Positions 11,659 through 30,586 of a stretch of DNA of 43,501 bases are shown piece after piece (positions within the stretch are counted from its first letter, which is position 1; each line of letters starts with the position of its first letter). The translations under genes and the position numbers were made by a program. Source of the stretch: a virus. The notes beneath the pieces were generated by a model, which was not told the origin of the DNA, made no database searches, and saw nothing but the letters and a program-made list of their open reading frames with translations. The DNA lies in IMG/VR virus record IMGVR_UViG_3300008050_000097; one strand, 5' to 3'.

Positions 11659-11675
11659 AGAGCTTGCCAGAGAGC

Positions 11676-11707: not shown

Positions 11708-11742
11708 AGATAGGCAATCAAACCGCAAAAACTGGAGTAACC

Positions 11743-12368: not shown

Positions 12369-12374
12369 AGAATT

Positions 12375-12461: not shown

Positions 12462-12468
12462 AATATTT

Positions 12469-12544: not shown

Positions 12545-12556
12545 AATAGGATAATC

Positions 12557-12646: not shown

Positions 12647-12656
12647 ATAGAATACT

Positions 12657-12745
12657 GGAAGGTCGCCAGAGGCTGGTGAGCTGGAGTCGCCTGCTAAGCG
12701 ATGGGTGTAACTGCCCCAAAGGTTCGATTCCTTTACCTTCCGCCA
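12657..12745 (+). tRNA. tRNA-Ser(GCT)
   Basis: Type II; anticodon arm GTCGC-CTGCTAA-GCGAT; T-arm AAAGG-TTCGATT-CCTTT; CCA. Confidence 0.85.
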
Positions 12746-12759
12746 AATAAGGAACAGAA

Positions 12760-13002
12760 ATGATTGATTACGCAAAACTTGCAAGCGAAATTCGTGAACT
12801 GGTGCCCCGTAACCGCCCAGGTGATAGAGCGCTGCTCGCGTCACGGGAAAGCAGCATTAGATATTCTGCACCAGAGATTGCCGGGCTTCATGTGACTGAA
12901 TTGGTTGATACAATTATGAGTATTTGTGGAGCTGGGCCTGAGTTTGAAGAAGAGTGGCAGCTTTCTATTTTCAACACATGGAACGCAGCACACGATCGAT
13001 AA
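12760..13002 (+). CDS. hypothetical protein
   Basis: 80 aa; RBS AAGGAAC. Confidence 0.45.
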   Translation: MIDYAKLASEIRELVPRNRPGDRALLASRESSIRYSAPEIAGLHVTELVDTIMSICGAGPEFEEEWQLSIFNTWNAAHDR

Positions 13003-13004
13003 AT

Positions 13005-13101
13005 GGAGAGGTAAGTCGAAAGATTCTGGGTATCGACTGCAGTCTTGAAAACTGTTAGGGGCTAACGCCCTGTCAGGGTTCGAATCCCTGTCTCTCCGCC
13101 A
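13005..13101 (+). tRNA. tRNA-Ser(TGA) with enlarged D-loop
   Basis: 97 nt; anticodon arm GCAGT-CTTGAAA-ACTGT; variable arm; T-arm CAGGG-TTCGAAT-CCCTG; D-stem AGTC/GACT encloses 17-nt loop. Confidence 0.7.
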
Positions 13102-13149
13102 TTTCACTGAAGGACCTAGTCATGAGCATTTTAACTGACAGAGTAGAAG

Positions 13150-13419
13150 ATGGCTGAGTACACTGAGAAATGGACAGTTGAATATTACGTCACCAGCGGG
13201 CTTGACCCTGAGATTGCAGGCATACTCTTTAAGAAGGGCTGGACGATCGTAGGACCAGCCAAGGCCATCAAGGTACTTGAAATTCCAGACAGGACTGCCA
13301 TCTGCGATCTTAACTACATTGCCCGCACAGCTTTCTTAAATGACGCAGAACTGTACAGCACAGCAGCTACCATGAGTGCGTTCGCAAGAATTCGAATTTT
13401 CAAGACAGAGTGGTATTGA
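13150..13419 (+). CDS. hypothetical protein
   Basis: 89-aa ORF. Confidence 0.45.
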   Translation: MAEYTEKWTVEYYVTSGLDPEIAGILFKKGWTIVGPAKAIKVLEIPDRTAICDLNYIARTAFLNDAELYSTAATMSAFARIRIFKTEWY

Positions 13420-13423
13420 TTGC

Positions 13424-13648
13424 ATGAGCGCATCGATGGAGCGTATAGGTTGTGATGAGTGTCGTGTCTGGTTCGATATTGAAGAAGACGCAGTTTTACC
13501 AGAGCATAAACGCTGGGTAGAAATTGATGGCTACAATACTGCTGGCGAAGAACATTGCCCGGGCAGTTGCACGCCAGGGCGGCGGACATTTAACGCGCGA
13601 AGCGAAGAAGTGACACAAAATGCAGCAAGCCAGCCTGGACTTGAATAA
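13424..13648 (+). CDS. hypothetical Cys-containing protein
   Basis: ATG 5 nt after upstream stop; CDEC...CPGSC. Confidence 0.4.
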   Translation: MSASMERIGCDECRVWFDIEEDAVLPEHKRWVEIDGYNTAGEEHCPGSCTPGRRTFNARSEEVTQNAASQPGLE

Positions 13649-13658
13649 AGCGCCGGTT

Positions 13659-13690
13659 TTTTCCGTTTAACACCCAACGTGTTATAATAG
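13659..13690 (+). promoter_or_regulatory. conserved promoter-like motif TTTTCCGTTT-N12-TGTTATAATAG
   Basis: Upstream of 13739 gene. Confidence 0.5.
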
Positions 13691-13738
13691 TAACAGGAAT
13701 AGAAAACCCGTAAAACGGTTTGAATAACGGAGATTAGA

Positions 13739-14149
13739 ATGTCTTACATAACTGTATATCCAATCCTTGATTTGGAGGCTTCGCCTACCAACCAGGAGGT
13801 GTTTGACAACGCTGCGTCATTTATCCTAGGCCAGGGTCCATGCATTACTTCCGACGTGACCCCCCGCTATAAGTATCGCAGTGGAGGAAAGGCTTGCGCC
13901 ATGGGTGCATTCATGACTGATTACGAAGCTGCCGTGGCTGACGAAGAGGGTTGGGGTGCTAGCTCAGTAGTTTCGAAAGCTACAAGGTTTAGCCAGTATG
14001 GAGAGCTATTTTCACACCTGGTGATTGCTCATGATCTTGCTGCTGACTGCGATCCAATTGATTTTCAAGCAAAATTTAGAGATGAAATGAGAAGGGTGGC
14101 CGAGGTTTTTTCTCTTGACGCAAGCAAGCTTGAGGAAGCCAATATTTGA
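13739..14149 (+). CDS. hypothetical protein
   Basis: 136 aa; preceded by TGTTATAATAG promoter-like motif and RBS GGAGA. Confidence 0.5.
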   Translation: MSYITVYPILDLEASPTNQEVFDNAASFILGQGPCITSDVTPRYKYRSGGKACAMGAFMTDYEAAVADEEGWGASSVVSKATRFSQYGELFSHLVIAHDLAADCDPIDFQAKFRDEMRRVAEVFSLDASKLEEANI

Positions 14150-14154
14150 TTTAT

Positions 14155-14230
14155 GCCCCCGTAGCTCAGTGGCCAGAGCGTTCCCCTTGTAAGGGAAGGG
14201 TCACCCGTTCGACTCGGGTCGGGGGCTCCA
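14155..14230 (+). tRNA. tRNA-Thr(TGT)
   Basis: Anticodon arm TTCCC-CTTGTAA-GGGAA; T-loop TTCGACT; CCA. Confidence 0.85.
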
Positions 14231-14245
14231 CTTTTAGGAACTACG

Positions 14246-14440
14246 ATGAGTTGTGATACAGAAAGAAAGCATCCGCACGGACATTGTACTGAGCATTGCG
14301 GAGAGTGCGGTGAAACTGCCAAGGGTGTGATCTGCGGCGTTTGTGCGCAGGTTCTGCAATCAGAGTTTTGCATTCGCTGCCACCAAGGCAAGGTGATCCC
14401 TGGAACAACGATGTGTGAAGATTGCTGGAAGGCTCGGTAG
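14246..14440 (+). CDS. Cys-rich zinc-binding small protein
   Basis: 64 aa with >=5 CxxC pairs. Confidence 0.45.
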   Translation: MSCDTERKHPHGHCTEHCGECGETAKGVICGVCAQVLQSEFCIRCHQGKVIPGTTMCEDCWKAR

Positions 14441-14542
14441 TAATTGTGGTACCGCTCTGGGTCCTAGAAGTGGGAATGATTCTGGCGCTAATTGCCGGCA
14501 TGCTAATTGGCTGGGGCTTTAGAGGCATAAAGGAAAATTGAT

Positions 14543-14618
14543 TCGCGGGTAGTTCAGTTGGTTAGAACATCGGGTTGTGATCCCGAAGACGCGGGTTCAA
14601 GTCCCGTCCTACGATCCA
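14543..14618 (+). tRNA. tRNA-His(GTG)
   Basis: Anticodon arm TCGGG-TTGTGAT-CCCGA; T-arm GCGGG-TTCAAGT-CCCGT; acceptor with one C-A mismatch; CCA. Confidence 0.75.
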
Positions 14619-14634
14619 TTAACTGAGGATGAAG

Positions 14635-14928
14635 ATGAGCATTGCAGAGAAGGTTGCTGAGCAAATCAGGGAGGCAATGGCGCAGCGCGCTGCCATTGAT
14701 AGAAATATTTCGCGACTTGTTGCGTATGCTTCGCTTCCTGAGAATCCGCAAAAGGCTGAGATTGTGTTCGACAATAGCACCTCTGTTGTTCTTCGTTCAA
14801 GCGCATATCGTGGCGCCAGTGAAGAAGAACGTGAACTTTATGAATTTGCAAAGCCAGAATTGACAGCACTTCTTAAGAAGATTCGTGCTTTCTCTGCTGG
14901 ACAACTTGCGCTTGAGGAGATTGAGTAA
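14635..14928 (+). CDS. hypothetical protein
   Basis: RBS GAGGA 8 nt upstream of ATG. Confidence 0.45.
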   Translation: MSIAEKVAEQIREAMAQRAAIDRNISRLVAYASLPENPQKAEIVFDNSTSVVLRSSAYRGASEEERELYEFAKPELTALLKKIRAFSAGQLALEEIE

Positions 14929-15086
14929 TGTTTGAGACTGTTGCCACGATCGTTTTTCTGTTTATGACAACCATCTGGTCAAGGGATGGTTGGACAAACT
15001 TGATTATCAAGGTTGCATTTGCACTGATGACAGCCTGGGCCTTCGCAGAAGCGATGATTGAATCAGGCTTCGTCATCGCAGCTTAA
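14928..15086 (+). CDS. small membrane protein (52 aa)
   Basis: TAATG overlap with upstream gene; two hydrophobic segments. Confidence 0.3.
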   Translation: MFETVATIVFLFMTTIWSRDGWTNLIIKVAFALMTAWAFAEAMIESGFVIAA

Positions 15087-15094
15087 CTGAAATT

Positions 15095-15182
15095 GGGGCG
15101 GTAGACCCGTAGGGGGCGGGTGGGGATTGTAAATCCCTTCTGTGTATGCAGCCCGGAAGTTCGACTCTTCCCTGCCCCACCA
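15095..15182 (+). tRNA. tRNA-Tyr(GTA)
   Basis: Bacterial type II Tyr: anticodon arm GGGGA-TTGTAAA-TCCCT, long variable arm, T-arm GGAAG-TTCGACT-CTTCC, CCA. Confidence 0.8.
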
Positions 15183-15199
15183 TTAACTAAGGAGAAATC

Positions 15200-15448
15200 A
15201 TGAATGATAGTGTAACACTACTGAGCGGCAAAAAGAACAAGCCAAGTCTTGTAGTTGCTCAGAAGCTTGTCGGTGGATACGTTCAATTGATTGAGCTTGC
15301 ACCAGTTGATGGTGATAAGACACAGATGCTTATTGATGAAGAAGGTCTTCTGAAGGGATTGCCGGGAAATCCTGAGGCTTCGTTCATTGCTGGGCAGCCA
15401 ATCGTTGGCCCTGCTGTTGTGTTGGTCGGCGACGCCTGCTGGGATTAA
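15200..15448 (+). CDS. hypothetical protein
   Basis: RBS AAGGAGAAATC. Confidence 0.45.
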   Translation: MNDSVTLLSGKKNKPSLVVAQKLVGGYVQLIELAPVDGDKTQMLIDEEGLLKGLPGNPEASFIAGQPIVGPAVVLVGDACWD

Positions 15449-15455
15449 AGCTTAT

Positions 15456-15611
15456 AGGACCATAGTTCAAGTGGTAGAATACGGCCGGGAATGATGCTCA
15501 TGCTTGCGCTAGAAACCATGTGCTGCAAGGTGAATTTGGTTGTTTGCATTGCAACACAAGCGTAGTGAGAAATCACTGGCTGGGATGCAGGTTCGAATCC
15601 TGCTGGCCCTT
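15456..15611 (+). tRNA. tRNA-like gene interrupted by ~91-nt insertion in anticodon arm
   Basis: 5' acceptor AGGACCA + D-arm GTTC-AAGTGGTA-GAAT and 3' T-arm GCAGG-TTCGAAT-CCTGC + acceptor TGGCCCT are canonical. Anticodon stems CGGCC/GGCTG flank an insert with an AGTGA-GAAA-TCACT tetraloop hairpin. Confidence 0.45.
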
Positions 15612-15621
15612 CATTTAAAAT

Positions 15622-15698
15622 ACGCCCGTAGCTCAGCTGGATAGAGCAGCGGATTCCTAATCCGCAGGTCGCAGGTTCGAGTCCTGCCGGGCGTACCA
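15622..15698 (+). tRNA. tRNA-Arg(CCT)
   Basis: Anticodon arm GCGGA-TTCCTAA-TCCGC; T-arm GCAGG-TTCGAGT-CCTGC; CCA. Confidence 0.85.
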
Positions 15699-15734
15699 TT
15701 CATAGGTGCTGATAACAATACTGGAGAAGAGAAC

Positions 15735-15950
15735 ATGGCTGAATTTAGCGTAAAGATTAAAAGAGTTCTTGAACAAGAAAGTGAAGTAACGCTTTCAATT
15801 AAGGGCATGTCACAGTGGGCTGTCGGGGAAGTGGCTAGCTCGCTGGAGGAAGTGCTTCGTGAAATTGTTGAAAGTGATGCTGATTCTGTCACTTGGGGCT
15901 CTGAAGACGAAGAGATCACAATCGAGAGTGTCAGGTACACTGGAGAGTAA
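15735..15950 (+). CDS. hypothetical acidic protein
   Basis: RBS GGAGAAGAG. Confidence 0.45.
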   Translation: MAEFSVKIKRVLEQESEVTLSIKGMSQWAVGEVASSLEEVLREIVESDADSVTWGSEDEEITIESVRYTGE

Positions 15951-15951
15951 G

Positions 15952-16212
15952 ATGTATAAGTTTGTAATTTTGATTGCCGCGATGTTCATGCTCAGCGGCT
16001 GTGTTAGCTCTGACGCAGCTACCAGTTATGCCGCGAGGGCGTACCCTGACTGCACAAACCACCAGTCACTGGGTCACCACTATGGTGGCGAAAATGGCGC
16101 TTCGCAGACAGAAGTCCGCATGACCTGTGACGGGGTGAATAAATCAATCACAGTCAAGTGTGTATTTGGGTTTGGAATCATCAGCGATACAACCTGCCAC
16201 GAGAATAACTGA
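15952..16212 (+). CDS. lipoprotein
   Basis: MYKFVILIAAMFMLSGC lipobox LSGC. Confidence 0.5.
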   Translation: MYKFVILIAAMFMLSGCVSSDAATSYAARAYPDCTNHQSLGHHYGGENGASQTEVRMTCDGVNKSITVKCVFGFGIISDTTCHENN

Positions 16213-16218
16213 GCAGTT

Positions 16219-16584
16219 ATGTTCAAGTGGGTACCTGGCCGGCAAGGTGGCGATTATTTCAAGGTGGAGCTGCTCAACTCAAAACGCCTGCGCATGCACT
16301 TAGTTCTACTTAAGCTCCCAAAGGGTGTGCACATTGCATATCACAAAGACCCAGCGCCTGATGGATTCAAGCATTGGCGCGTTAACTTTGTTTTCTGGCG
16401 GGGAGCGACAGGTTCGAGACTTGTGCAGGGGCAGTCACTATTTGCTCGTGCACGTGCGGCCTATGGAGGCTTTTTCGCCAATAGGCTGAACATCTTCAGG
16501 CCTGATGAGGTTATCCATGGCGTATCACGTGCCAGTGAGACAAGCTACGCACTCAGCTTTGGTTGGTTGCAGAGAAAGAAGTGA
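16219..16584 (+). CDS. 2OG-Fe(II) oxygenase superfamily protein (small)
   Basis: HKD (HxD) ... H ... RAS (RxS) spacing consistent with a double-stranded beta-helix oxygenase. Confidence 0.45.
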   Translation: MFKWVPGRQGGDYFKVELLNSKRLRMHLVLLKLPKGVHIAYHKDPAPDGFKHWRVNFVFWRGATGSRLVQGQSLFARARAAYGGFFANRLNIFRPDEVIHGVSRASETSYALSFGWLQRKK

Positions 16585-16586
16585 TT

Positions 16587-17999
16587 ATGCGTGAATTTCG
16601 ACAAAAGGGCAGGACAGCTGCGCTTCTTTGGACAATTGAGCTCCATGGAGCAACAGAGACAGTTCGTTACGGCCAGCTCGGTGGGCAGATGCAGGAGGCA
16701 TCCCATACTTACGCTGGTGTCAACATTGGTAAGTCAAATGAGCTAAGCCCAGAGGAATTTGCCCAGACACGGGTCGATAAGAAGATTGAAGAGCAGCGCA
16801 GGGCAGGCTACATTGAATATGTTGATGGTGTTGCCACAGAAGTGCGAGTTGAAGCTGTAAGCGCCGACGAGCCATTGCCAACAAATCTCTGCTTCTACAA
16901 GCCGAACAACAAGCCTGGCGGCAAGATGCTCAAGCTGATTGAGGATGGGAAAGCCATCTTCGGCCGCAAGCGTGACGGCATGATGCACGTGATTCGCGTT
17001 ACTGCTGACAGCACTGAAGTGTACTCCCGCCGAATGCTTCAGTCGATGGACAAGGAACCTGGGAAACCGTGGGCACTTCGTTACCCGAAGATTGTAGAAG
17101 AATTTGAAGCGATGGCTGAGGTCGAAATCTTCCCACCCAATACTGTGTTCCTTGGTGAGATGGTCATGGACCGCGGTGGTGTCGATGACTTCACGCACGT
17201 CGCTCGTGTTACAAAGTCACTGACTCATGAATCACTTGCCATCCAAGCAGCGGACGGTTGGGTGTCGTATTATATCTGGGATGTTGCCATTTGGGGCGGT
17301 GTTGAAGTTGCCAAGACGATGTCTTTCGCCGAAAGGCAAAAGCTCCTTGAGCCAATGAACAGGGAGTGGCTTAAACTAGAGAACTGGTGGGTGCTCGGAC
17401 ATACACCAATTCTGCCTCTGGATGTTTGGACACCGAGTGATTTGCAGCTTGCAACTGATCTTGAAGATGAGTTTGCGGATTTTCCGCCTGTGCTTACAAT
17501 GGCAACTGATCTGGCGAAGGAGTTGGATTGGGAAGGCTTCGTGGTTGTTGATCCGACAGCTGTCTATGGTGAGAAGGCGTTCAACTTCAGGGGTAAGCCC
17601 GACAGGCCTCGTGGCATGTGTGCCAAGGTAAAGCCCTCCTATGAGGATGACTTCATCGCTCGCTGGGATCCTGAAGACGACATCGGCGAGTACGGCAAGG
17701 GCAAGCACCAGGGCATGTGCGGCAGTGTCGGGCTTTACCAGCTGAATGAGGCTGGGGAAGAGGTATGGATCTGTAAGGCTGGCGGCGGCATCAAGGATAA
17801 GTTCACAAAGGAATATCCCGATGGTCTGCTGCGGGTAGATCTAAGTGACAAAAGCATCTACCCGCTTGTTGTAGAAGTTGAATACGATTCACGCACGTAC
17901 AGGTCTGATGGTGATAAAACTGACGCACTTCGTTTCCCACGAATTGTTCGTTGGCGTGATGATAAGGCGTACGAAGAGTGTGTGAATTCTAGATTGTAA
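16587..17999 (+). CDS. ATP-dependent DNA ligase
   Basis: Motif I FGRKRDGMMHV (KxDG), motif IV DWEGFVVVDP, motif V CAKVKP; ATG with purine-rich RBS. Confidence 0.7.
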   Translation: MREFRQKGRTAALLWTIELHGATETVRYGQLGGQMQEASHTYAGVNIGKSNELSPEEFAQTRVDKKIEEQRRAGYIEYVDGVATEVRVEAVSADEPLPTNLCFYKPNNKPGGKMLKLIEDGKAIFGRKRDGMMHVIRVTADSTEVYSRRMLQSMDKEPGKPWALRYPKIVEEFEAMAEVEIFPPNTVFLGEMVMDRGGVDDFTHVARVTKSLTHESLAIQAADGWVSYYIWDVAIWGGVEVAKTMSFAERQKLLEPMNREWLKLENWWVLGHTPILPLDVWTPSDLQLATDLEDEFADFPPVLTMATDLAKELDWEGFVVVDPTAVYGEKAFNFRGKPDRPRGMCAKVKPSYEDDFIARWDPEDDIGEYGKGKHQGMCGSVGLYQLNEAGEEVWICKAGGGIKDKFTKEYPDGLLRVDLSDKSIYPLVVEVEYDSRTYRSDGDKTDALRFPRIVRWRDDKAYEECVNSRL

Positions 18000-18061
18000 A
18001 TAACAGCGCCAGTGTCATTGGCGATGATCCTAAGTGTATGCCAAAATTACTACTCACTCAT

Positions 18062-18138
18062 AGGAGGGTGGCCAAGTGGTAAAGGCAGCGATCTTATGAG
18101 TCGATGATGCGTGGGTTCAATCCCCACCCCTCCTACCA
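18062..18138 (+). tRNA. tRNA with anticodon TAT (Ile, AUA-decoding)
   Basis: Acceptor AGGAGGG/CCCTCCT, 3-bp D-stem, anticodon loop CTTATGA (U33, R37), T-arm GTGGG-TTCAATC-CCCAC, CCA. Confidence 0.55.
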
Positions 18139-18294
18139 TTTCAGTGGAGCAAAATGTCTGTAACACATGTGCAGGGCGATTACTTAAATCAGATTGTGAT
18201 ATTATTGGTCACGGCTGCAATTGCATGACAACTTAGGCAGACTTGGCCACATGTTTACGATGCCGATAGGCTCAACACCAAGCGTAGTGATCCG

Positions 18295-18606
18295 ATGAAG
18301 CTTGGTACGTTTGCAGTTGCAGTTGCATCGAATCGTGATGAAGAGCCAATGCACGTCTACAACCTCTATACACAATACGGTTATGGCCATGGCCGACATG
18401 CTGAGTACGCAGCAATTCGTTTTGCAATGGAGGCAATGCGAGCTGACGTTCTTGAAGGGTGTAATTTGAGTGCGTGGGGTGAAAGAGATCCAAAGATCGG
18501 ATTTCCAAAAATCGGAGCTGGTCTTGGTGGCGGTGACTGGGACATTATTGAAACGATCATTGATACAGTCTGGCATGACTTTGATGTGTTTGTGTACAGT
18601 CTTTGA
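18295..18606 (+). CDS. hypothetical protein
   Basis: 103 aa; internal repeat HVY(D/N). Confidence 0.4.
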   Translation: MKLGTFAVAVASNRDEEPMHVYNLYTQYGYGHGRHAEYAAIRFAMEAMRADVLEGCNLSAWGERDPKIGFPKIGAGLGGGDWDIIETIIDTVWHDFDVFVYSL

Positions 18607-18613
18607 ATTGCAT

Positions 18614-18646
18614 GTTTCCGCGCTGGAAACTACATTGTACAATATA
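18614..18646 (+). promoter_or_regulatory. conserved promoter-like motif GTTTCCGCGC-N12-TGTACAATATAA
   Basis: Upstream of 18664 peptide and tRNA-Ala. Confidence 0.45.
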
Positions 18647-18663
18647 AACAGGAATGAAAGGAA

Positions 18664-18798
18664 ATGAACATGGATAACGACGACGATTTCTTTGGCACCT
18701 TCTTCAAGGGAGGCGCTGTTCTTATTGTAGTTGGCATCATTGCAAATTTGGTTTTGTTTGGTGGCGCAGCTCTGATCATTAAGGCACTGTTCTTTTAA
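18664..18798 (+). CDS. small membrane peptide (44 aa)
   Basis: RBS AAAGGAAATG; acidic N-term plus one TM helix. Confidence 0.3.
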   Translation: MNMDNDDDFFGTFFKGGAVLIVVGIIANLVLFGGAALIIKALFF

Positions 18799-18805
18799 AG
18801 CTTTT

Positions 18806-18881
18806 GGGGACATAGCTCAGTTGGGAGAGCGGTTGCTTTGCAAGCAGCAGGTCAGGGGTTCGATCCCCCTTGTCTCCACCA
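18806..18881 (+). tRNA. tRNA-Ala(TGC)
   Basis: G3:U70 identity pair; anticodon arm GTTGC-TTTGCAA-GCAGC; T-loop TTCGATC; CCA. Confidence 0.85.
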
Positions 18882-18904
18882 AATTCGAAATAGAAACATA
18901 GATA

Positions 18905-19483
18905 ATGGATAGAATTAGCAAAGCTTGGAAGCATGCAGAAGACAAATTCGATGGTGTGCTGTATGGAGATTTTTCATATTTGAAGCACCTTCGTGATGCG
19001 CATGATGTGCTTGTCTCTGTTGGGATCATGGAAAAGACGCTGAGAATTGCAGTAATTCTCCATGACAACATTGAAGACACAAGCGATACTGTGCAGGATA
19101 TCGAAGAGTTGTTTGGTTGGCAAATTGCCCAGCTTGTCTGGGCAGTCTCTGACGGCCCGGGTGAAACTCGAAAAGAGCGGCACCAGAACACGTATCCAAA
19201 AACAGCAAGTGTTGAAAATGCTGTGATTGTAAAGCTGGCTGACAGAATTGCAAATGTCAAGGCCAGTGTTGGGTCAATTCTTAAGCGTGGAAAGGTTGAC
19301 AAATTTTCCATGTATTTGGGTGAGAGAGAATCGTTTATGCTCGCCTTGAATGCTTCGAAGCATTCACCTTCGTACGATACGAATGTTGACTCTTTGTGGC
19401 GCATGTATGAGGCTCAATACGATCTTGGGCTTGAGCACCTTGCGCAGCTAGATAGAGAGAATGCTCGGGCTTGGCGAACTTGA
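18905..19483 (+). CDS. HD-domain metal-dependent phosphohydrolase
   Basis: H...HD...D motifs: HLRDAHDVL, ILHDNIEDT, KLADRIAN. Confidence 0.6.
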   Translation: MDRISKAWKHAEDKFDGVLYGDFSYLKHLRDAHDVLVSVGIMEKTLRIAVILHDNIEDTSDTVQDIEELFGWQIAQLVWAVSDGPGETRKERHQNTYPKTASVENAVIVKLADRIANVKASVGSILKRGKVDKFSMYLGERESFMLALNASKHSPSYDTNVDSLWRMYEAQYDLGLEHLAQLDRENARAWRT

Positions 19484-19505
19484 TGAAGAACTTGAAGGAA
19501 AATAA

Positions 19506-19582
19506 CAGGGTGTAGCTCAGTTGGTAGAGCGCCGGTCTTGGGGTCCGGAGGTTCGCAGGTTCGAGACCTGCCACCCTGACCA
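19506..19582 (+). tRNA. tRNA-Pro(TGG)
   Basis: Acceptor CAGGGTG/CACCCTG; anticodon loop CTTGGGG; T-arm GCAGG-TTCGAGA-CCTGC; CCA. Confidence 0.8.
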
Positions 19583-19600
19583 TTTAAAATGAGGAAGATA

Positions 19601-19828
19601 ATGAAGAACATGGAAATTGTGACAAAGGCAGGAACCCACTTCAGGCTGACACGAGCTGGGTTTTTGTACCGTGAAGGACAGCGCCTGGGCAAGGTTTTGG
19701 CACCTAGCATCGATGATGTAGTGGCTTCCATGAAGGGCGAGCCTCGACGAGGAAACAATTTTCGACTCATTCGCTACGTTGTTGATGGAAGTCACGCTGG
19801 TTTCCATACACAGTACATTAGCTGCTAG
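19601..19828 (+). CDS. hypothetical protein
   Basis: ATG with RBS GAGGAAG. Confidence 0.4.
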   Translation: MKNMEIVTKAGTHFRLTRAGFLYREGQRLGKVLAPSIDDVVASMKGEPRRGNNFRLIRYVVDGSHAGFHTQYISC

Positions 19829-19838
19829 GGAGAGTAAG

Positions 19839-20084
19839 ATGCGACCGATTTGGAAAATTACTGAAGAGATTCTAACTGACTGGCAGAATGTTTCTCCTCA
19901 CGCCCAACCGTATTTGAATGCAATGCTTTATTTGGATGACTTTACATCACAGTACGGTCTGGACGATGGCGAATCTGTTGTGTTGTATTTTCTCTCAAAC
20001 GCAACGACTTGGCGGGGAGAAACTGCACGAAGGATCAAGGCAGAGCTCCGCAAGGATCTCAAAGAATACAGGAGGCGCATATGA
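19839..20084 (+). CDS. hypothetical protein
   Basis: RBS AGGGAGAG. Confidence 0.4.
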   Translation: MRPIWKITEEILTDWQNVSPHAQPYLNAMLYLDDFTSQYGLDDGESVVLYFLSNATTWRGETARRIKAELRKDLKEYRRRI

Positions 20085-20272
20085 CACGCACACAACGCCC
20101 ATCAATTCTCGGTGAATACGAAATTGTAGCTGAGCCACCTGATAAGATTCTGGTCGAAGTTGAAACTAAGCTGCCTGACGGAAAGATCGCGATCTCGTAT
20201 CAGAAGTACGTGTTGGCAGAAGATGCAGTTCCGGCAGCTCCGGGCAGCCAACCTCTCTTCTTCAAAAAGTAA
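20081..20272 (+). CDS. hypothetical protein
   Basis: RBS AGGAGG; ATGA overlap. Confidence 0.35.
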   Translation: MTRTQRPSILGEYEIVAEPPDKILVEVETKLPDGKIAISYQKYVLAEDAVPAAPGSQPLFFKK

Positions 20273-20281
20273 AAAGTATCT

Positions 20282-20357
20282 GGGCCATTAGTTCAGCTGG
20301 TAGAACAAGGGACTCTTAATCCCCACGTCCCGGGTTCAAATCCCGGATGGCCCTCCA
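20282..20357 (+). tRNA. tRNA-Lys(CTT)
   Basis: Acceptor GGGCCAT/ATGGCCC; anticodon loop CTCTTAA; T-arm CCGGG-TTCAAAT-CCCGG; CCA. Confidence 0.8.
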
Positions 20358-21110: not shown

Positions 21111-21968
21111 ATGCCGGAACCTGTAGCAATTATTGGTGACATTCACGGTTGCTTTGATGAGCTCCTTGCACTGGAAGCAGAGCTCGACAGGCAGTTCCCA
21201 GGTGGCATCCGCCGTGTCTTTGTCGGGGATCTTCTTGACAAGGGGCCGAAGCAGATTGAACTGCTTGACTATGTCATTGAGAAGGGCTATGACGTTGTCA
21301 TGGGCAACCATGAAGACAAGCACCGGCGCTTCAAGAAGCATGACATTGAAAAGGGTCCCAAGAACAATCCGATGCGGAAGTCCAGGCGCGGAAGTCCAGT
21401 GTCTGGTACAGGCGGGTTTGTTGAAATCAACGAGCTCCTGACTGCGGATCACTATGCATTCCTTTGCAGTCTTCCTCTCGCCATCAGGATTCCTGAGTGG
21501 GAATTGATCGTCATTCACGCCGGCATTCCAGCAGCAATGCAGAACATCGGTACAGAAGTCACTGCACCATTCATTACACTTGCAGGAAAAACCAAGAAGT
21601 TCTTTGGAACGCTCTGTTGGACGCGTTTCATCAGCGGAAGCAAGGGTATGCCCGTGATGCTTGGAAAAGAAGGGCCTGAAGATTCCTACTGGGCAGAAGT
21701 GTACGACGGGCGGTTCGGAACTGCAGTCTTTGGACACCAGCCATTCAAGGGACCAGCAGTGTTTCCATTCGCCAGAGGCGTGGATACAGGCTGCGTTTTC
21801 GGAGATCAGTTGTCGTGTATTGTATACACTGACGATGACCCTGATGGTTGCTTCATCAGTGTGGAGGCCTTGGCTGCGCATGCAGAACCATGGGGTCCCC
21901 GTGATGGCTACTGCATTGATGGTAAGTTTGTTCGAGTTGAGCGTAAGATTAAAGAAATCATCGGTTGA
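21111..21968 (+). CDS. PPP-family Ser/Thr protein phosphatase (lambda PPase/ApaH-like)
   Basis: IGDIHG, GDLLDKG, GNHE metallophosphatase signature in PPP order. Confidence 0.7.
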   Translation: MPEPVAIIGDIHGCFDELLALEAELDRQFPGGIRRVFVGDLLDKGPKQIELLDYVIEKGYDVVMGNHEDKHRRFKKHDIEKGPKNNPMRKSRRGSPVSGTGGFVEINELLTADHYAFLCSLPLAIRIPEWELIVIHAGIPAAMQNIGTEVTAPFITLAGKTKKFFGTLCWTRFISGSKGMPVMLGKEGPEDSYWAEVYDGRFGTAVFGHQPFKGPAVFPFARGVDTGCVFGDQLSCIVYTDDDPDGCFISVEALAAHAEPWGPRDGYCIDGKFVRVERKIKEIIG

Positions 21969-24957: not shown

Positions 24958-25608
24958 TTAAGCTTCCAGGGCAACGATGTAGTCTTCGCCGTACAGTTTT
25001 ATTGCAGCGTCGCGACGCCAAGCTGGGTTGGGTTGCTCAGCAATCTTTTTTCCTGCTGGGACTGTGTTCATGACACGCTGGGCTTTTGCAATATGCTTCT
25101 GCAACAGGCCTCCACCAGTCCAGTTAGTTTGAATCAGGTGGGACCGCAATCTTCCCATATCTTTTTCATCGTCCAAGATAATGAGGCGCTGGTCGACAAG
25201 TCCGGCCAGCGAAATGTTTTGCAAAAGCCATTGCTCAATTTCAAGACCACGAATATTGTCGTAGTATGCTGCTGTGTTTGCAAGAGAGAATGTTGGCGTT
25301 CTGCCAATGACATCAGCAGCCAACCCTTTTTCACCAAGCATCTCACGCAACTCGTCCAACTCATGGTGCAATCGCCAAGAAGAGCTGATGACAATATCAG
25401 CGCCTGTTAGCTCAGCGATTCTTTGCACATGATCAACCCTAGCTGGGTCAACCATGTGTGCCCAGGTGTCAATAGAGAAATCTGTCGTTAGCCGAGGATC
25501 GTCATTGCTTAACAGCGCCTGTACGTCAGGGTGTAACTTCGCAGCCTGTGTGTTCCACTTAAGCGTGTTAAGTACGCCGTCGACATCAAGAAAGATGAGC
25601 GGGTTCAT
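24958..25608 (-). CDS. HAD-superfamily phosphatase (polynucleotide 3'-phosphatase-like)
   Basis: N-terminal FLDVDGVLN (DxDGx) motif as in T4 Pnk phosphatase domain. Confidence 0.6.
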   Translation of the reverse strand: MNPLIFLDVDGVLNTLKWNTQAAKLHPDVQALLSNDDPRLTTDFSIDTWAHMVDPARVDHVQRIAELTGADIVISSSWRLHHELDELREMLGEKGLAADVIGRTPTFSLANTAAYYDNIRGLEIEQWLLQNISLAGLVDQRLIILDDEKDMGRLRSHLIQTNWTGGGLLQKHIAKAQRVMNTVPAGKKIAEQPNPAWRRDAAIKLYGEDYIVALEA

Positions 25609-25916
25609 TTTCTCTTAAGGTCATCCCAGTTGATGTGCCGCGGCATGTGACTGAGAATCTCATTAAAGAGATTGTCATCATCACCGGCTGCATCATAAAT
25701 GCGGTCGCCTGCCAAGTCGTGCATCAATCCTTCATCATTGTAGAAGGCATCAGCGAGCGATCCATCACCCCGGCGGGCCAACCGCTGTCGAAGGGGAGGC
25801 AGATCTTCGATACCGTACAAACCAGGCATTGTCTCATAGCCGTGACCCATCTCGCCAACGGCGGTCTGAAGATAATTGGCAACTTCACTGGCGATTTCTT
25901 TTGCTCTATTAATCAT
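25605..25916 (-). CDS. hypothetical protein
   Basis: 103 aa; 4-nt overlap with downstream gene. Confidence 0.45.
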   Translation of the reverse strand: MINRAKEIASEVANYLQTAVGEMGHGYETMPGLYGIEDLPPLRQRLARRGDGSLADAFYNDEGLMHDLAGDRIYDAAGDDDNLFNEILSHMPRHINWDDLKRK

Positions 25917-25919
25917 GCT

Positions 25920-26174
25920 TTATCCAAAGTCTAAAATCCACTCTTCAACCTGCGCAGAAACGCTTGCCAGTGATGAGGCAATACCGTCTGTGCACCAACT
26001 CTCATCTCGCTTAACATCAAAAAGGTAATCATCACCATCGTTGATTGGGACAGATACTGTTACAAGGTACGCAAGGTGTGCTGAGCAACGAAACGTAGCT
26101 TCAAGGAGTTCGCATACTCCATCACCAGTTTCATCAAACCCAGCGGCCTGCCATGGTGTGTGGGTGATATGCAT
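25920..26174 (-). CDS. hypothetical protein
   Basis: Start MHITHTPW coupled (TGATG) to upstream peptide. Confidence 0.4.
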   Translation of the reverse strand: MHITHTPWQAAGFDETGDGVCELLEATFRCSAHLAYLVTVSVPINDGDDYLFDVKRDESWCTDGIASSLASVSAQVEEWILDFG

Positions 26175-26281
26175 CACCGACTTCCGATCAAAATCCCAAG
26201 ACAGAAAGTAATTAGCAGCCAGATAACAACAACATTTTGCTCTGCTGCATTCATCCCTGCCCAAACAATCTGCATATCCAT
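26174..26281 (-). CDS. small membrane peptide (35 aa)
   Basis: RBS GAAGGAG 5 nt upstream; hydrophobic VVVIWLLITFCLGILIG. Confidence 0.3.
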   Translation of the reverse strand: MDMQIVWAGMNAAEQNVVVIWLLITFCLGILIGSR

Positions 26282-26283
26282 GA

Positions 26284-27465
26284 CTACTCCTTCACATCGT
26301 CAGTTACAGGCAATTCCCACGCTCGGGGTGCCTTACCGTTATTGAGCTTTCGAACAACCCACTTCTTGTAGTCAGGATCAGAGTCACTGTAGTATTCCTG
26401 AATTGCGAACTGCCAGTGATTCGGAATGTCACGCTGCGCGTCCAGGACAAACTCACGTCTTTCGAAGCCAGTCCCACCAGTAAACTCTTCAGAGTCGGCC
26501 AGATAATTTTCTACCCAATCCTGCGTGACTGATGTTGCAGTTGCTAGCAATTCATCATACGGCTTGAACGCTTCGGCCAACTGGTTCTTGTGCGGTTCAA
26601 GCAGCATATCAAGAAGTTCATCAGTCACTCCGGCGTACCATGCGTCAGCAACAGACCGTGGGGTCATACCATGAACAACTCGATGCATTGCAATATACTG
26701 CGCACCCTTAATCTTTACGCGAATGTTACGCAGCAGCTTATGGTCGTATGCGCTAACGACCCACCCCTCGTCAGTATACGGCAATAGCAGCGCTTGTTCT
26801 ACAGCCTCTGGAATACTGGGGTTGCTGACATTTGTTGCAATACTATAGCGCTTCTGTGAAAGCGTGAATGCATCTTCGCCGTACAATTCAGCCCCGAAGC
26901 GGTCGATCTTGGCTGCATTATATTCACACCCATTTCGCATGCGAATATTGAGAAGCGACAGTCGTTCATTCTCATGAGGGACAACACTTGAATTGCCGAA
27001 GCGCAGCTGCGGATAGGTGTATTCAAAGCTGAACGTTCCACCACCGAAGCTTACTGGGAAGTGCGCGGCGAGGGCGCTATCAATCCTGTTCTGCTTGATT
27101 AGCTCCCAAGCTCCGTCAATGTATTCGTTGTCGAGACTGCCGCGAGTTGATACATTTAGTACACCATCAAGGTCACACCACAAATTAATCAGCGTGCCGT
27201 CAAGCTTCTTGAGCAGAACTTCTGGTGTGTAGAGCCCGTCAACAAAGTCAGCACCAGGCTCGTGACTATTGAAGAACTTGCGCATCGGGCGGCAAACAAT
27301 CTTGCCACGATGGAACACAACCCCTCGCGCTTCAAGCGTGATTTCATTCCACAGTCGACTATTTGCAGTTTCACTGGTGTAGTTGAATAGCTCGTATTCA
27401 TTCTTTGCAGTGCGCCGGATGCTGCCCTGCTCAGCTGCAGCACGAAAGTCTTCGATGTTGAGCAT
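26284..27465 (-). CDS. RNA ligase (Rnl family nucleotidyltransferase)
   Basis: Motif I KKLDGTL (KxDG) and surrounding ligase/capping-enzyme NTase motifs; ATG with RBS GGAGAG. Confidence 0.7.
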   Translation of the reverse strand: MLNIEDFRAAAEQGSIRRTAKNEYELFNYTSETANSRLWNEITLEARGVVFHRGKIVCRPMRKFFNSHEPGADFVDGLYTPEVLLKKLDGTLINLWCDLDGVLNVSTRGSLDNEYIDGAWELIKQNRIDSALAAHFPVSFGGGTFSFEYTYPQLRFGNSSVVPHENERLSLLNIRMRNGCEYNAAKIDRFGAELYGEDAFTLSQKRYSIATNVSNPSIPEAVEQALLLPYTDEGWVVSAYDHKLLRNIRVKIKGAQYIAMHRVVHGMTPRSVADAWYAGVTDELLDMLLEPHKNQLAEAFKPYDELLATATSVTQDWVENYLADSEEFTGGTGFERREFVLDAQRDIPNHWQFAIQEYYSDSDPDYKKWVVRKLNNGKAPRAWELPVTDDVKE

Positions 27466-27466
27466 C

Positions 27467-28033
27467 TTACTCTCCAATGCACCAGAATGACCGATCACTT
27501 ACGCTAATTTCAATCCATCCCCTGTTGTCACGCGGGTGTGGTTCAACTGTGACAACATCAATGATTGCGCCAAAGCCTTCGTTAACAGTGGGCTTACGCA
27601 GTTGCTTGTCCATGCGTCGGATGACGTCTCCACTGATTGCCTTTCGGCCCCGAGCTGCTTGCCGGGCCAATGAAACCTGCACGTTGCACTGCACATAGAT
27701 TGCAGCTGTTTTGAGCCCAGCGCCGATCGCAACATTGAGCATAGCACTTCGGCGCATTGGCGCGACGTTGGTTGCATCAAAGATGATGGCCGATCTCGGC
27801 GAGGTCGCGTTGCTCGCGTCATACCAGCTGGAGAAGGTGCTCTTCCCGCTCCCGGGCAAACCAACCATAACAATGAATGTGGTGTTCATGGGGTCGCAAG
27901 CAACAAGTGCTGCGCCGAGCTTCTGGTAACTGCGTTGCCAGGCCTCACTAGCTCGCTCAGGTGTCCAGTCGTAAACTCCGCCGGCCAGCTCTTCAATTTC
28001 AGTGTCTGGGCAAATAATCATTCTCGAATCCAT
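27467..28033 (-). CDS. polynucleotide kinase (P-loop 5'-kinase)
   Basis: Walker A VMVGLPGSGKST; small kinase size like the T4 Pnk kinase domain; adjacent to RNA ligase. Confidence 0.65.
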   Translation of the reverse strand: MDSRMIICPDTEIEELAGGVYDWTPERASEAWQRSYQKLGAALVACDPMNTTFIVMVGLPGSGKSTFSSWYDASNATSPRSAIIFDATNVAPMRRSAMLNVAIGAGLKTAAIYVQCNVQVSLARQAARGRKAISGDVIRRMDKQLRKPTVNEGFGAIIDVVTVEPHPRDNRGWIEISVSDRSFWCIGE

Positions 28034-28461
28034 CCCTCATTGCGCGCTCTGAATTCAACAGTGTCAGGCGGCCCATACTTAGCTACAAGCCTGTTAAAGT
28101 CTCTTTGGAAATCTGGATGACGTGCACTAATGAACGACCCAGACTCCCACTCACAGAAAATTCTATTGCAATCATCTGCATTAATGACTGGTGCCAGAGG
28201 ATTTACAGCAAACCACTTGTGACCTTCCGCGCCTGCGTAATCAACGCACCACATCGGCTCCGCACTGTCACCCCAATATGGTGGCCAAGATGATGTATTC
28301 TGCTCGTTGTTATTGTTCCACGCGCATTCAAGAAGCTCCGGCTCCCGGCTCGCTGGCCGGCTAGTCATAACCCAAATTCGTCCAGCCTCAGGGCCAGGAA
28401 GTGGGTCAGTTCGAAGCGAAGGATTAGCCAGTAGCTTCTCCCACTCAATCTTGGTCATCAC
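28018..28461 (-). CDS. hypothetical protein
   Basis: 147 aa, Trp-rich, overlaps Pnk start by 16 nt. Confidence 0.45.
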   Translation of the reverse strand: MMTKIEWEKLLANPSLRTDPLPGPEAGRIWVMTSRPASREPELLECAWNNNNEQNTSSWPPYWGDSAEPMWCVDYAGAEGHKWFAVNPLAPVINADDCNRIFCEWESGSFISARHPDFQRDFNRLVAKYGPPDTVEFRARNEGWIRE

Positions 28462-28592
28462 TTCTTACCTTTCGTCGGCAGTGATTTCGCTGTGCCTCTT
28501 TGCGCTTATTCTTGAAACGAATAGCACGCCCACGCCAGGCGTAAATTCCACCCTCACGAATGGTTACTTCACGCCTGGCGCCGGCGGCGATC

Positions 28593-28958
28593 TTACGCGC
28601 CTGCTTCTTCTTGTCCTTGGCCATCGCGGTTCTTCGCTGCGCTCATGCGACCGAAGAACGCACCGATATCGATGTCGTCATGGTCTGCATGAATGATGAT
28701 GTCCTGTTCGTTCGTGCCATCATCGTTGGTGACATTCACGATCTGAAACGTTTGATGCTGCATGAGCGCAGCTCGCCGCTCCAGCACTTCCATGGCCACA
28801 AACCACGGGCCGCCAGCCTCAGCAAGCTGCACAGCCTCCTCAAGCTCACGATCAAGGTTGGCAACAAAGCGCTTGGACGGATTGGGAGTGAAATCTTCAC
28901 GCCGCGTCTTTGCACGCTTCTGCAACCTCTTCTGCTCTGCCCATTCTGCTGGAGTCAT
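28593..28958 (-). CDS. hypothetical protein
   Basis: 121 aa; RBS GAGAG. Confidence 0.45.
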   Translation of the reverse strand: MTPAEWAEQKRLQKRAKTRREDFTPNPSKRFVANLDRELEEAVQLAEAGGPWFVAMEVLERRAALMQHQTFQIVNVTNDDGTNEQDIIIHADHDDIDIGAFFGRMSAAKNRDGQGQEEAGA

Positions 28959-29131
28959 TTGTATCTCTCAAAGTTGATTGTTTTGAAGGGATGAACGAAT
29001 TTCACGTTCCTGTCCAACGTTCCCGGGTAAGAGGTTCGCTCTTACCACATTCCTTCGCTGGTCTTCTCCAGTACCCTGCGTCTTCCCTGGAGCCCCATAA
29101 CTACCATGCAGTAGTTATTTACGCAGGTTTA

Positions 29132-29557
29132 TTAAGCCTGCAGGCTGGCGTACTGCTCATCATCGAGGGCAGCCTTCGCCTCATCATCGGTAACCACGCC
29201 AGCAGCAATTGCACCCGCGAGGACGTTCGACGAGAACATCTTGCGAATCATGTCAGATCGTGCTTCCGAGCTGGCCGCGGCAGCAACCTCCGCCTTCGAC
29301 TGACGGGAGTTGGTAGCCGTGATGAAGCCGATTGCGCCTTCGGGAAGGAAGTCCCCGAGCGACGAGACAGCAGCCTCGATGTCACCGCCAGCAGCGAGAC
29401 CAAAGCCTTCGCTAACAGCGGTGAAGTACTCAACATCTCCGCCACGCAGCATGTTCTGCAGGTGACTGGTGTTGGTAGCCGAGCGGCCACTCCAACGCGA
29501 CTTGCGCGTGGGGGTGATACTCGGAGCGGACGTGTTCTCACTCTTATCGCCAGACAT
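29132..29557 (-). CDS. hypothetical Ala-rich protein
   Basis: Start MSGDK with RBS AAAGGAAC. Confidence 0.45.
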   Translation of the reverse strand: MSGDKSENTSAPSITPTRKSRWSGRSATNTSHLQNMLRGGDVEYFTAVSEGFGLAAGGDIEAAVSSLGDFLPEGAIGFITATNSRQSKAEVAAAASSEARSDMIRKMFSSNVLAGAIAAGVVTDDEAKAALDDEQYASLQA

Positions 29558-29629
29558 TTGAAGTTCCTTTCGTGTCAGGCCTAGTTTGGATTTCACGGCA
29601 ACAAATTCACCGTAACCCCTGTTCTTTTA

Positions 29630-29660
29630 TATTATAATTCGTTGTATGTTATGCGGAAAT
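29630..29660 (-). promoter_or_regulatory. conserved promoter-like motif (- strand) ATTTCCGCAT-N14-TATAAT
   Basis: Upstream of 29557 start; overlaps 3' end of previous gene. Confidence 0.4.
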
Positions 29661-29867
29661 AATCGCCTTCATTGGCTCAGGACAACCACCGCGAATAAGA
29701 AGCAGCGCTGGGTCCTTCAGTTCGATAGCAAGGATCTTTTCAGCTCGAAGCGTAATTCCCAAATTTGAAAACATCACACCGATGACGACGTCACCACTGT
29801 CTTCAAATCCTTGAACAACAAAACGGGAGCCATCGCTGAGTACCCAAACGTCTCCAATGTTAATCAT
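29649..29867 (-). CDS. hypothetical protein
   Basis: 72-aa ORF. Confidence 0.4.
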   Translation of the reverse strand: MINIGDVWVLSDGSRFVVQGFEDSGDVVIGVMFSNLGITLRAEKILAIELKDPALLLIRGGCPEPMKAIISA

Positions 29868-30586
29868 ACGAACGGACCTTCTTCAATCTCATGAATCTTT
29901 ACTGTTGTTGCTCCGTTGAAGATCTGAACAACAAACGTGTCGACATCTTCCAGACCGCCTAGCTCAGCATACGTAGTTTTTCCACCATGCTCGTGCACAT
30001 GGCCGTGGAAATAGTACTGCACCCAATCAGACTGCCGATAATGGAGCAAGTGTGGCATGGCTCGAATACCATAACCATTATCAAGATACCCAGACAATGG
30101 CGCATGATTGGCAATCAATGTTGGGTGCTGCGCCAGCAATTCTTCACACAATTCAGCGAGTTCTGGCGCTCGTGTTTCATGAGCCCACTCGCCTGCAATC
30201 CAATTGATATTGGGAAAGCCGGTGATTCGATGGCCTAGCAATTCATGCACAATTCCGCGCTTGATGGGATACACATTTTCATACCCCTGCTCAAGCATAA
30301 AGTCGCCCAGGCAGAAGAAATCATGGTTGCCATCAACAACAACAATAGGAACATCACCAAAGGCTTCCATGGCCATACCAAGCCTATGGGTCGCATGCTT
30401 TGGCTTATCTTTTTCAAGAAGCCAGGCTTTCTGCTTATCACCCTCTTTGCCACCCGCAGGTCCCCGGTGCCAATTTGGAAGCATGTCTCCAGTTAGCAGA
30501 ACAAGATCAAAATCTTGTCCAGGAGTTGCCCACAGCTTATTCCAATAGTATCCATGCAAATCGCTTGCATGTAGAACTTTAATCAT
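29864..30586 (-). CDS. calcineurin-like metallophosphoesterase
   Basis: DLHG, GDM, GNHD, GHVHE motifs; start MIKVLHASDLHG chosen to avoid overlap with upstream gene. Confidence 0.65.
   Translation of the reverse strand: MIKVLHASDLHGYYWNKLWATPGQDFDLVLLTGDMLPNWHRGPAGGKEGDKQKAWLLEKDKPKHATHRLGMAMEAFGDVPIVVVDGNHDFFCLGDFMLEQGYENVYPIKRGIVHELLGHRITGFPNINWIAGEWAHETRAPELAELCEELLAQHPTLIANHAPLSGYLDNGYGIRAMPHLLHYRQSDWVQYYFHGHVHEHGGKTTYAELGGLEDVDTFVVQIFNGATTVKIHEIEEGPFV

Follow-up and report, generated by a model that had tools for sequence, protein, structure and literature searches.

Repair of tRNA by phages is a classic counter to anticodon-nuclease defence, and defence systems that target tRNA are widespread. 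In bacteriophage T4 this task falls to Pnkp and Rnl1, whose tRNA restriction-repair pathway counters PrrC. For jumbo phages a larger repertoire has been described: section 3.4.9 of the survey by Iyer, Anantharaman, Krishnan, Burroughs and Aravind (2021, PMC7824862) lists Rnl1 and Rnl2 ligases and polynucleotide kinase, together with stand-alone 'Swiss-army-knife' HAD enzymes, occasional calcineurin-like phosphatases, RlaP, cRec and many tRNAs. We analysed a gene block in a 43,501-nucleotide metagenomic virus record, IMGVR_UViG_3300008050_000097 (hereafter the window, meaning this whole stretch). The block lies on the minus strand, reads from position 28461 to 24958 and encodes, in this order, a protein of 146 amino acids (aa), a P-loop kinase, an RNA ligase, small open reading frames (ORFs), a 103-aa protein and a HAD phosphatase. 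We give a probability of about 0.7 to the reading that this block is a phage RNA healing-and-sealing operon; most likely it mends tRNAs cut by host defence nucleases.

The genes of the block are translationally coupled. Direct reading of the junctions showed that the TAA stop codon of the kinase is separated by a single nucleotide (g) from the ATG of the ligase, that the stop of the first ORF (28018..28461, −; 146/147 aa) and the start of the kinase overlap in the sequence ATGA, and that the 103-aa ORF and the HAD gene share an ATGA as well. Because of these three tight couplings, the region from 28461 to 24958 can be treated as a single compact block. Two of its genes start inside their ORFs. 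The ligase ORF (26284-27498, 404 aa) has its true start at M12 (ATG 27465), giving a 393-aa protein identical to database protein P0001, and the kinase ORF (27467-28033) starts at ATG 28021, giving 184 aa identical to P0011. Both starts were fixed by these database copies and agree with the N-termini of the respective families. An earlier note on this DNA had placed four enzymes on the minus strand here (the three just named and, further upstream, a metallophosphoesterase), with kinase and phosphatase on separate polypeptides. The ORFs and their Pfam matches confirm this arrangement, with catalytic motifs intact in all four enzymes and the ligase gene lying between those of the kinase and the phosphatase. 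The segment-swapped kinase, the conserved 103-aa gene and the second metallophosphoesterase described below did not figure in that note.

The presumed sealing enzyme (26284..27465, −; motif KLDG) belongs to the Rnl1 family of ATP-dependent RNA ligases. It matched PF09511 (RNA_lig_T4_1; E=1.2e-8), phrog_562 (E=1e-45, residues 30-377), the sequence of the T4 Rnl1 structure 2c5u (E=2e-7) and TIGR02308 (E=1e-18). The last match covers ligase residues 33-365, corresponding to positions 29-339 of the 373 in the profile, and its score is 67.5 bits, the equivalog cutoff being 242. Alignment A5 compares the ligase with that of phage Moon, a T4-like Rnl1, and with eight relatives. Motif I, K87-L-D89-G90 in the numbering of the 393-aa protein, aligns with K99-E-D-G of T4 and is invariant in this alignment, as are R47, K63, F65, E148, E233/G234 and K251/K253, which correspond to T4 R54, K75, F77, E159, E227/G228 and K240/K242. 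With K99/D101/G102, these T4 positions make up what we take to be the essential residues of Rnl1. The equivalent of T4 K119 is an Arg, a conservative replacement. The suspicion that the profile of this ligase might be that of a DNA ligase or capping enzyme is thus dispelled: Rnl1 RNA ligases are matched and the essential Rnl1 residues are kept. By sequence the protein is an Rnl1-type RNA ligase, for which sealing activity is predicted.

The second enzyme of the set is a 184-aa P-loop kinase of the polynucleotide kinase (PNK) clade (27467..28021, −; motif GLPGSGKST). It matched Pfam AAA_33 (E=5e-12), and its sequence matches in the PDB were PSTK, T4 Pnk, the kinase domain of Clostridium thermocellum Pnkp (CthPnkp) and mammalian PNKP. 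Its nearest sequence relatives and most of its nearest structural neighbours are polynucleotide or tRNA kinases and not nucleoside monophosphate kinases, the group that would have counted against the earlier note. T4 Pnk is 34% identical over 95 aligned residues. A sequence alignment with T4 Pnk brought GLPGSGKST, IIFDATN and ARQAARGRK into register with the Walker A, D85 and R122/R126 regions. However, the P-loop helix and IIFDATN are no more than about 15 residues apart, at a place where T4 Pnk holds the segment with D35 and R38, and the canonical order, in which the Asp equivalent to T4 D35 lies on the strand after the P-loop helix, was not found. Residues 2-40 of the kinase (IICPDTEIEELAGGVYDWTPERASEAWQRSYQKLGAALV) align instead with residues 28-64 of the kinase P0013 (VISPDTYLEEKFGYDWTPVNAAKAWASCYQALGRALM), which follow the P-loop in that protein. 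This alignment scored 105 (z=17.7), a score reached by none of 500 shuffled sequences. As judged from these alignments, the Asp-bearing strand and its helices sit N-terminal to the P-loop, and the kinase has undergone a segment swap. The N-terminal segment has no Arg at +3 of D6, the place of T4 R38. P0013 itself, the closest relative of canonical order, comes from a 19.7-kb contig (L005, stretch 8037-10703), where its gene is flanked by those of a Macro-domain protein and of RlaP, a context that resembles RNA repair with no annotated ligase.

The rearranged order is not peculiar to this phage. A HMMER scan of 1.84 billion representative sequences returned 808 relatives of the kinase, and the best 150, together with earlier matches, were classified using three hidden Markov models (HMMs), one for each segment. 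The swapped order (B-A-C) was found in 100 of the classified relatives and the canonical order (A-B-C) in 35, while 36 had a divergent middle segment. The swapped members fall into about 100 distinct metagenomic clusters at 50% identity, none with a database name more specific than "predicted kinase". Across 32 swapped members (alignment A6), D6, K60, D82 and R91 do not vary, and R120 and R124 hardly do. Since D6, K60, D82, R120 and R124 are conserved, the counterparts of T4 K15, D35, D85, R122 and R126 appear to have been retained through the rearrangement. On a neighbour-joining tree, swapped and canonical orders cluster strongly, with 9 changes compared with about 31 when labels are shuffled, but they do not form cleanly monophyletic groups. 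This suggests that origins were few; a single origin is not established. One swapped-order kinase (P0077) is fused to a HAD_SAK_1 domain, which fits a part in RNA repair. A search of IMG/VR with the kinase as single query recovered no relative, and no title relevant to a permuted polynucleotide kinase came up in a literature search, which is weak evidence of absence. On the strength of its clade and conserved residues, we propose that the protein is an RNA 5'-OH kinase. The fuller claim, that it represents an undescribed and widespread topological variant of the PNK fold (B-A-C) serving as the RNA 5'-kinase of a four-gene operon with Rnl1, HAD_SAK_2 and a 103-aa accessory protein, we put forward tentatively, at slightly less than even odds.

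The phosphatase is a stand-alone HAD protein of 216 aa (24958..25608, −) which starts MNPLIFLDVDGVL and contains the motif FLDVDGVL. It belongs to HAD_SAK_2 (PF18143), whose profile it matched with E=6.3e-27 and 95 bits (cutoff 27.5), and it also matched phrog_1818 (E=1.5e-22). Alignment A3 shows no variation at D8/D10 of the DxDGV motif, at S75/S76 or at D146/D147, so that HAD motifs I, II and IV are present. No match to the T4-type family HAD_PNKP was obtained at E≤0.1. The idea that the set follows the logic of T4 Pnkp and Rnl1 is supported by the ligase, by the kinase, by the synteny described below and by what is reported of jumbo phages (section 3.4.9 of PMC7824862), with the qualification that the phosphatase is HAD_SAK_2 and not T4 Pnkp-type. 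An RNA 3'-phosphatase role for HAD_SAK_2 is a published prediction from gene context. We propose that the protein is an end-healing enzyme acting on RNA 3'-phosphates and possibly on 2',3'-cyclic phosphates too. At least 469 matches in IMG/VR show how abundant the family is among viral contigs. Most of the 120 genes nearest to HAD_SAK_2 in 42 dereplicated viral loci were unannotated; where a family could be identified, it was most often RNA ligase (PF09414), with Thg1, HAD_PNKP, NADAR and tRNA-binding proteins among the others. A small family resembling metallophosphoesterases (HLGD…WGNHD…HGHCH), with no precomputed Pfam match, repeatedly adjoins HAD_SAK_2 (L001 13315-13887; L093 6607-7197), and was seen at about 10 of the best 80 HAD_SAK_2 loci (e.g. 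L076 11475-12107).

The gene directly upstream of the phosphatase, to which it is coupled, encodes the 103-aa protein (25605..25916, −). This protein had no match in Pfam, PHROG or NCBIfam, yet a 5.4-kb ENA contig (L004) encodes an ortholog with 43% identity (E=2e-25), whose gene again immediately precedes that of the HAD protein, and we regard the 103-aa protein as a probable conserved partner of the HAD enzyme with a putative role in repair. The whole order is kept in this contig, with identities of 64% for the kinase, 50% for the ligase, 43% for the 103-aa protein and 58% for the HAD protein, and a CCA-adding enzyme follows the HAD gene. The intervening ORFs differ, a non-homologous 102-aa ORF being found between kinase and ligase. 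In the window, the small ORFs between the ligase and the 103-aa gene (25920..26281, −; called as ORFs of 84 aa and 35 aa in contig L003, described below) had no homolog in L004 or in contig L001 and no family match in Pfam or PHROG. The first gene of the block likewise had no counterpart in these two contigs and no Pfam, PHROG or NCBIfam match.

A second arrangement was found in four more distant contigs, which form a sister lineage (the contig encoding P0007, L001, L092 from Tara Oceans, and L093) and have ligases that are 48-53% identical. In these, the Rnl1 ligase is followed 0.1-1.4 kb downstream, upstream of the HAD gene, by a metallophosphoesterase (MPE), then by HAD_SAK_2 and cRec, often with a second MPE-like gene. 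An AAA_33 kinase is located 2-3 kb upstream of the ligase in three of the four, none being annotated in L092. That kinase is canonical, with a P-loop and then AADDYF, and is not orthologous to the kinase of the window. The slot for a kinase near the ligase is therefore kept while its occupant changes, which argues for function over mere inheritance. The cRec gene (cREC_REC) always follows HAD_SAK_2 in this lineage (L001 15252-15623, L092 13053-13424, L093 8280-8657 and the P0007 contig). Iyer and colleagues (PMC7824862) give cRec as a predicted 2',3'-cyclic phosphodiesterase. A search for a cRec homolog in the window found none, the best match having E=0.064 on the wrong strand.

Taken as an RNA-repair pathway, these genes would act as follows. 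A host ribotoxin, typically an anticodon nuclease, would cleave a tRNA and leave a 2',3'-cyclic phosphate and a 5'-OH. The HAD_SAK_2 phosphatase would clear the 3' end to a 3'-OH, one of two metallophosphoesterases encoded in the window (MPE1 or MPE2, below) perhaps first opening the cyclic phosphate. The rearranged kinase would phosphorylate the 5'-OH, and the Rnl1-type ligase would seal the nick through a Lys-AMP intermediate at K87. An RlaP nucleotidyltransferase could rebuild trimmed 3' ends, and the phage's own tRNAs, of which there are at least 16, could replace those beyond repair. The family assignments, the intact catalytic residues, the translational coupling and the conserved linkage of the genes are observed. 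What we infer is which substrates the enzymes use and in which order they act, what the 103-aa protein does and what kind of nuclease the host deploys.

Several points weigh against this pathway. The activities of all the operon proteins are predicted ones, and an anticodon nuclease is the presumed target. The L004 phage is a related one, a flanking 71-aa ORF being 72% identical, so that some of the synteny is inherited and not independently selected. Swapped-order kinases are also found fused to GNAT acetyltransferases and to a protein-kinase domain, and the clade may thus have more than one substrate. Sequence and profile searches of the PDB with the HAD protein returned noise only, with no detectable solved relative. 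An Rnl1-like ligase or a kinase lies within 8 kb in only 4-5 of the best 80 HAD_SAK_2 loci in IMG/VR. Two loci hold a complete PNK-HAD fusion and an Rnl1-like ligase in addition to HAD_SAK_2, and since the family occurs beside complete PNK-HAD fusions, its reaction may differ from 3'-dephosphorylation. This co-occurrence, the membership of a family that is not of Pnkp type and the contexts in which no Rnl1-type ligase or kinase was detected are the reasons why a 3'-phosphatase role is something that we infer for this protein.

In an alternative explanation, the ligase is a genuine RNA ligase and the kinase and HAD protein act on nucleotides or other small molecules, in salvage or in the detoxification of a toxic or signalling nucleotide made by the host, their adjacency reflecting only the dense packing of phage early genes. 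We consider this explanation unlikely. The clustering of kinase, ligase, 103-aa and HAD genes exceeds chance. Were the kinase nevertheless not to act on RNA, more caution would be needed with calls of "RNA repair" that are made from AAA_33 and HAD context. The set might also repair DNA ends, the kinase and phosphatase cleaning nicks with 5'-OH and 3'-phosphate termini, as mammalian PNKP does, for a DNA-ligase-like protein encoded at 16563-17999. Yet the ligase next to the kinase, and coupled to it, is of Rnl1 type and has all the Rnl1 residues considered above. The DNA ligase gene lies at a distance of 9 kb, on the opposite strand. Moreover, the neighbours of the relatives are related to tRNA: the CCA-adding enzyme in L004, RlaP beside P0013 and cRec in the sister lineage. 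DNA-end repair accordingly seems highly improbable to us, and an RNA healing-and-sealing operon remains the preferred reading.

The place of the metallophosphoesterases is less clear-cut. MPE1 (29864..30586, −; 240 aa, ATG at 30586) is an Icc/MPPED2-like protein (Pfam Metallophos E=2.5e-9). Its binuclear-metal motifs DxH, GD, GNH(D/E), H and GHxH are all kept across 20 homologs, and these motifs and its αββα sandwich fold place it in the calcineurin-like superfamily. It lacks the bacterial Pnkp-type signature (GDxHG / GDxxDRG / GNHE) and similarity to the CthPnkp phosphatase domain. The gene is found 1.4 kb upstream of the compact block, across four unannotated ORFs and gaps of 52-173 nt, and its nearest homologs (33-39% identity) are on phage contigs with no ligase, kinase or HAD gene within 8 kb. 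From these homologs our first view was that MPE1 is unrelated to the repair set. It could be an Icc/CpdA-like cyclic-nucleotide phosphodiesterase that degrades, for example, cyclic nucleotides with which the host signals in defence, or its gene could be an early gene with no relation to repair. This view was softened by an HMM of the MPE1 family, which recognised the metallophosphoesterases located between ligase and HAD genes in the four sister contigs with 19-24 bits, as compared with −0.7 for MPE2, indicating that a related phosphodiesterase recurs near the ligase. In addition, calcineurin-like enzymes are among the phosphatases occasionally found in jumbo-phage RNA repair, as given in section 3.4.9 of PMC7824862. 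We therefore consider the chances that MPE1 takes part in the repair set, or stands outside it, to be roughly equal; if it does take part, it is possibly an accessory 2',3'-cyclic phosphodiesterase. The earlier suggestion of a metallophosphoesterase as second end-healing enzyme survives in that a related protein stands beside the ligase in the sister lineage, and is weakened by the Icc/MPPED2-like type of MPE1, its distance from the block and its homologs without repair neighbours.

MPE2 (21111..21968, +; 285 aa), encoded just past a tRNA array, belongs to the clade of λ phosphatase, ApaH and bacterial Pnkp. Its PDB matches were 2qjc (E=8e-15), the CthPnkp phosphatase domain 4j6o (E=5.9e-12, residues 4-260) and λ phosphatase 1g5b (E=1e-7). 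It also matched phrog_246 (NinI-like; E=1.6e-24), the metallophosphoesterase segment of the multidomain phrog_8238 'RNA ligase' and, in BLASTP (E=3e-5), the corresponding domain of a kinase-MPE-ligase fusion in contig L073. MPE2 thus appears closer than MPE1 to a known RNA end-healing phosphoesterase and is an alternative candidate healing enzyme, although its linkage is loose, the gene being on the opposite strand and 3 kb beyond the operon. The L073 fusion (1913-4120) is a 735-aa phage protein made of a canonical PNK kinase, a λ-phosphatase-like metallophosphoesterase and an Rnl-type ligase domain; this bacterial Pnkp-like architecture is encoded within 4 kb of a HAD_SAK_2 gene.

The left part of the window holds further genes for tRNA and for RNA ends. 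The large tRNA array and the RlaP-like gene pointed out in the earlier note are both present. The array (10266..20357, +) comprises at least 16 tRNA genes, 15 detected by ARAGORN and one by Rfam only (11170-11239, +; 45 bits), interspersed with small ORFs, the DNA-ligase-like gene and an HD_4 gene. One of the tRNA genes (18062-18138, +) specifies tRNA-Ile with anticodon TAT. The Rfam scan of the window found tRNAs and nothing else. The DNA-ligase-like protein (16563-17999, +; ATP-dependent type, 478 aa) matched phrog_114 (E=2.6e-14), both Pfam DNA-ligase domains scoring under their gathering thresholds. The HD_4 protein (RelA/SpoT-type HD hydrolase domain; 18905-19483, +; Pfam E=2.7e-8), encoded between tRNA genes, might be an alarmone or nucleotide hydrolase. 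The RlaP-family Polβ nucleotidyltransferase (2068..3042, +; 324 aa) matched Pfam RlaP (PF10127; E=3.7e-12, 46.9 bits against a gathering cutoff of 23) and phrog_388 (E=1.5e-69), and belongs to the family on this score. RlaP enzymes add 1-2 nucleotides to damaged RNA 3' ends (PMC12776372), and this protein likely restores nucleotides lost from such ends. Its gene is the first of three overlapping genes (2068-3946, +), the others encoding an NT5C-like HAD 5'-nucleotidase (3039-3632, +; Pfam E=8e-13) and a small protein with a GIY-YIG nuclease domain (3629-3946, +; E=1.4e-12); the trio may form a second module for RNA or nucleotide end-processing. Just downstream of this cluster, a gene was found for an 880-aa protein homologous to the Major Vault Protein of eukaryotes (4716-7358, +; MVP_shoulder E=1e-21, Vault_3 E=2.4e-8, Vault repeat E=7e-4, SPFH E=1e-6). 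Vaults are ribonucleoproteins, and a vault protein homolog near RNA-repair genes is perhaps worth attention. Phage homologs of this protein appear in one report, a 2023 preprint (10.1101/2023.11.10.566534).

The window, a 43.5-kb JGI metagenome contig, corresponds to part of a 175.7-kb ENA contig (L003, ERZ27249139 k141_178795), with 99.4–100% protein identity for every ORF compared. The source is therefore a large uncultivated phage of at least 175 kb. When the region was compared by megablast with 50,697 phage records, no match was obtained, which means that no isolate in that collection is close enough to lend annotation; the ligase is less than 30% identical to the phage-collection proteins among the 25 best matches listed. 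At about 24.9 kb the genes change from the plus to the minus strand, and GC skew changes sign at the same place. This convergent switch, at about 24820-24958, with plus-strand genes to the left and minus-strand genes to the right, coincides with the maximum of cumulative GC skew. A promoter scan of the window gave counts similar to those of shuffled sequence and was uninformative, and a terminator scan placed no terminator-like site at any gene boundary.

The locus offers a compact and testable repair set made of separate small proteins. It could reveal the function of HAD_SAK_2, a family abundant in phages, it would test whether a P-loop kinase with a transposed segment still acts as a polynucleotide kinase, and it might yield a new accessory factor.

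Compared with fungal and plant Trl1 (ligase-kinase-CPD), the proteins of the window are separate, and no 2H cyclic phosphodiesterase was found among them; the presence of a putative 3'-phosphatase argues against a Trl1-like pathway that leaves a 2'-phosphate at the junction. In bacterial Pnkp (Clostridium thermocellum Pnkp/Hen1) and in the phage kinase-MPE-ligase fusions (phrog_8238; L073), modules that are separate genes here are fused. Unlike bacterial Pnkp/Hen1, the window has an extra HAD phosphatase, and MPE2 is on the opposite strand, 3 kb off the operon; no Hen1 methyltransferase is among the annotated ORFs of the window, in which no search aimed at Hen1 was made. The repertoire of the window matches the jumbo-phage sets as listed in section 3.4.9 of PMC7824862; passages and term searches of that paper showed neither a swapped-order kinase nor the 103-aa partner. 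With the T4 pair Pnkp and Rnl1, the window shares the three predicted chemistries. The phosphatases of both are DxDG-type HAD proteins, the ligases belong to the same family with the same essential residues, and the kinases to the same clade. However, whereas T4 Pnkp is one polypeptide, the kinase and HAD protein of the window are encoded by separate genes flanking the ligase gene, the phosphatase is HAD_SAK_2 and not of the Pnkp phosphatase family, the Asp segment of the kinase precedes the P-loop, and the HAD gene is preceded by an inserted, conserved gene for the 103-aa protein. The strategy of tRNA repair by a phage is thus a known one; what distinguishes this locus is a transposed-segment kinase from a large uncharacterised clade, a 103-aa gene coupled to the HAD gene, and Pnkp-like modules present as separate genes.

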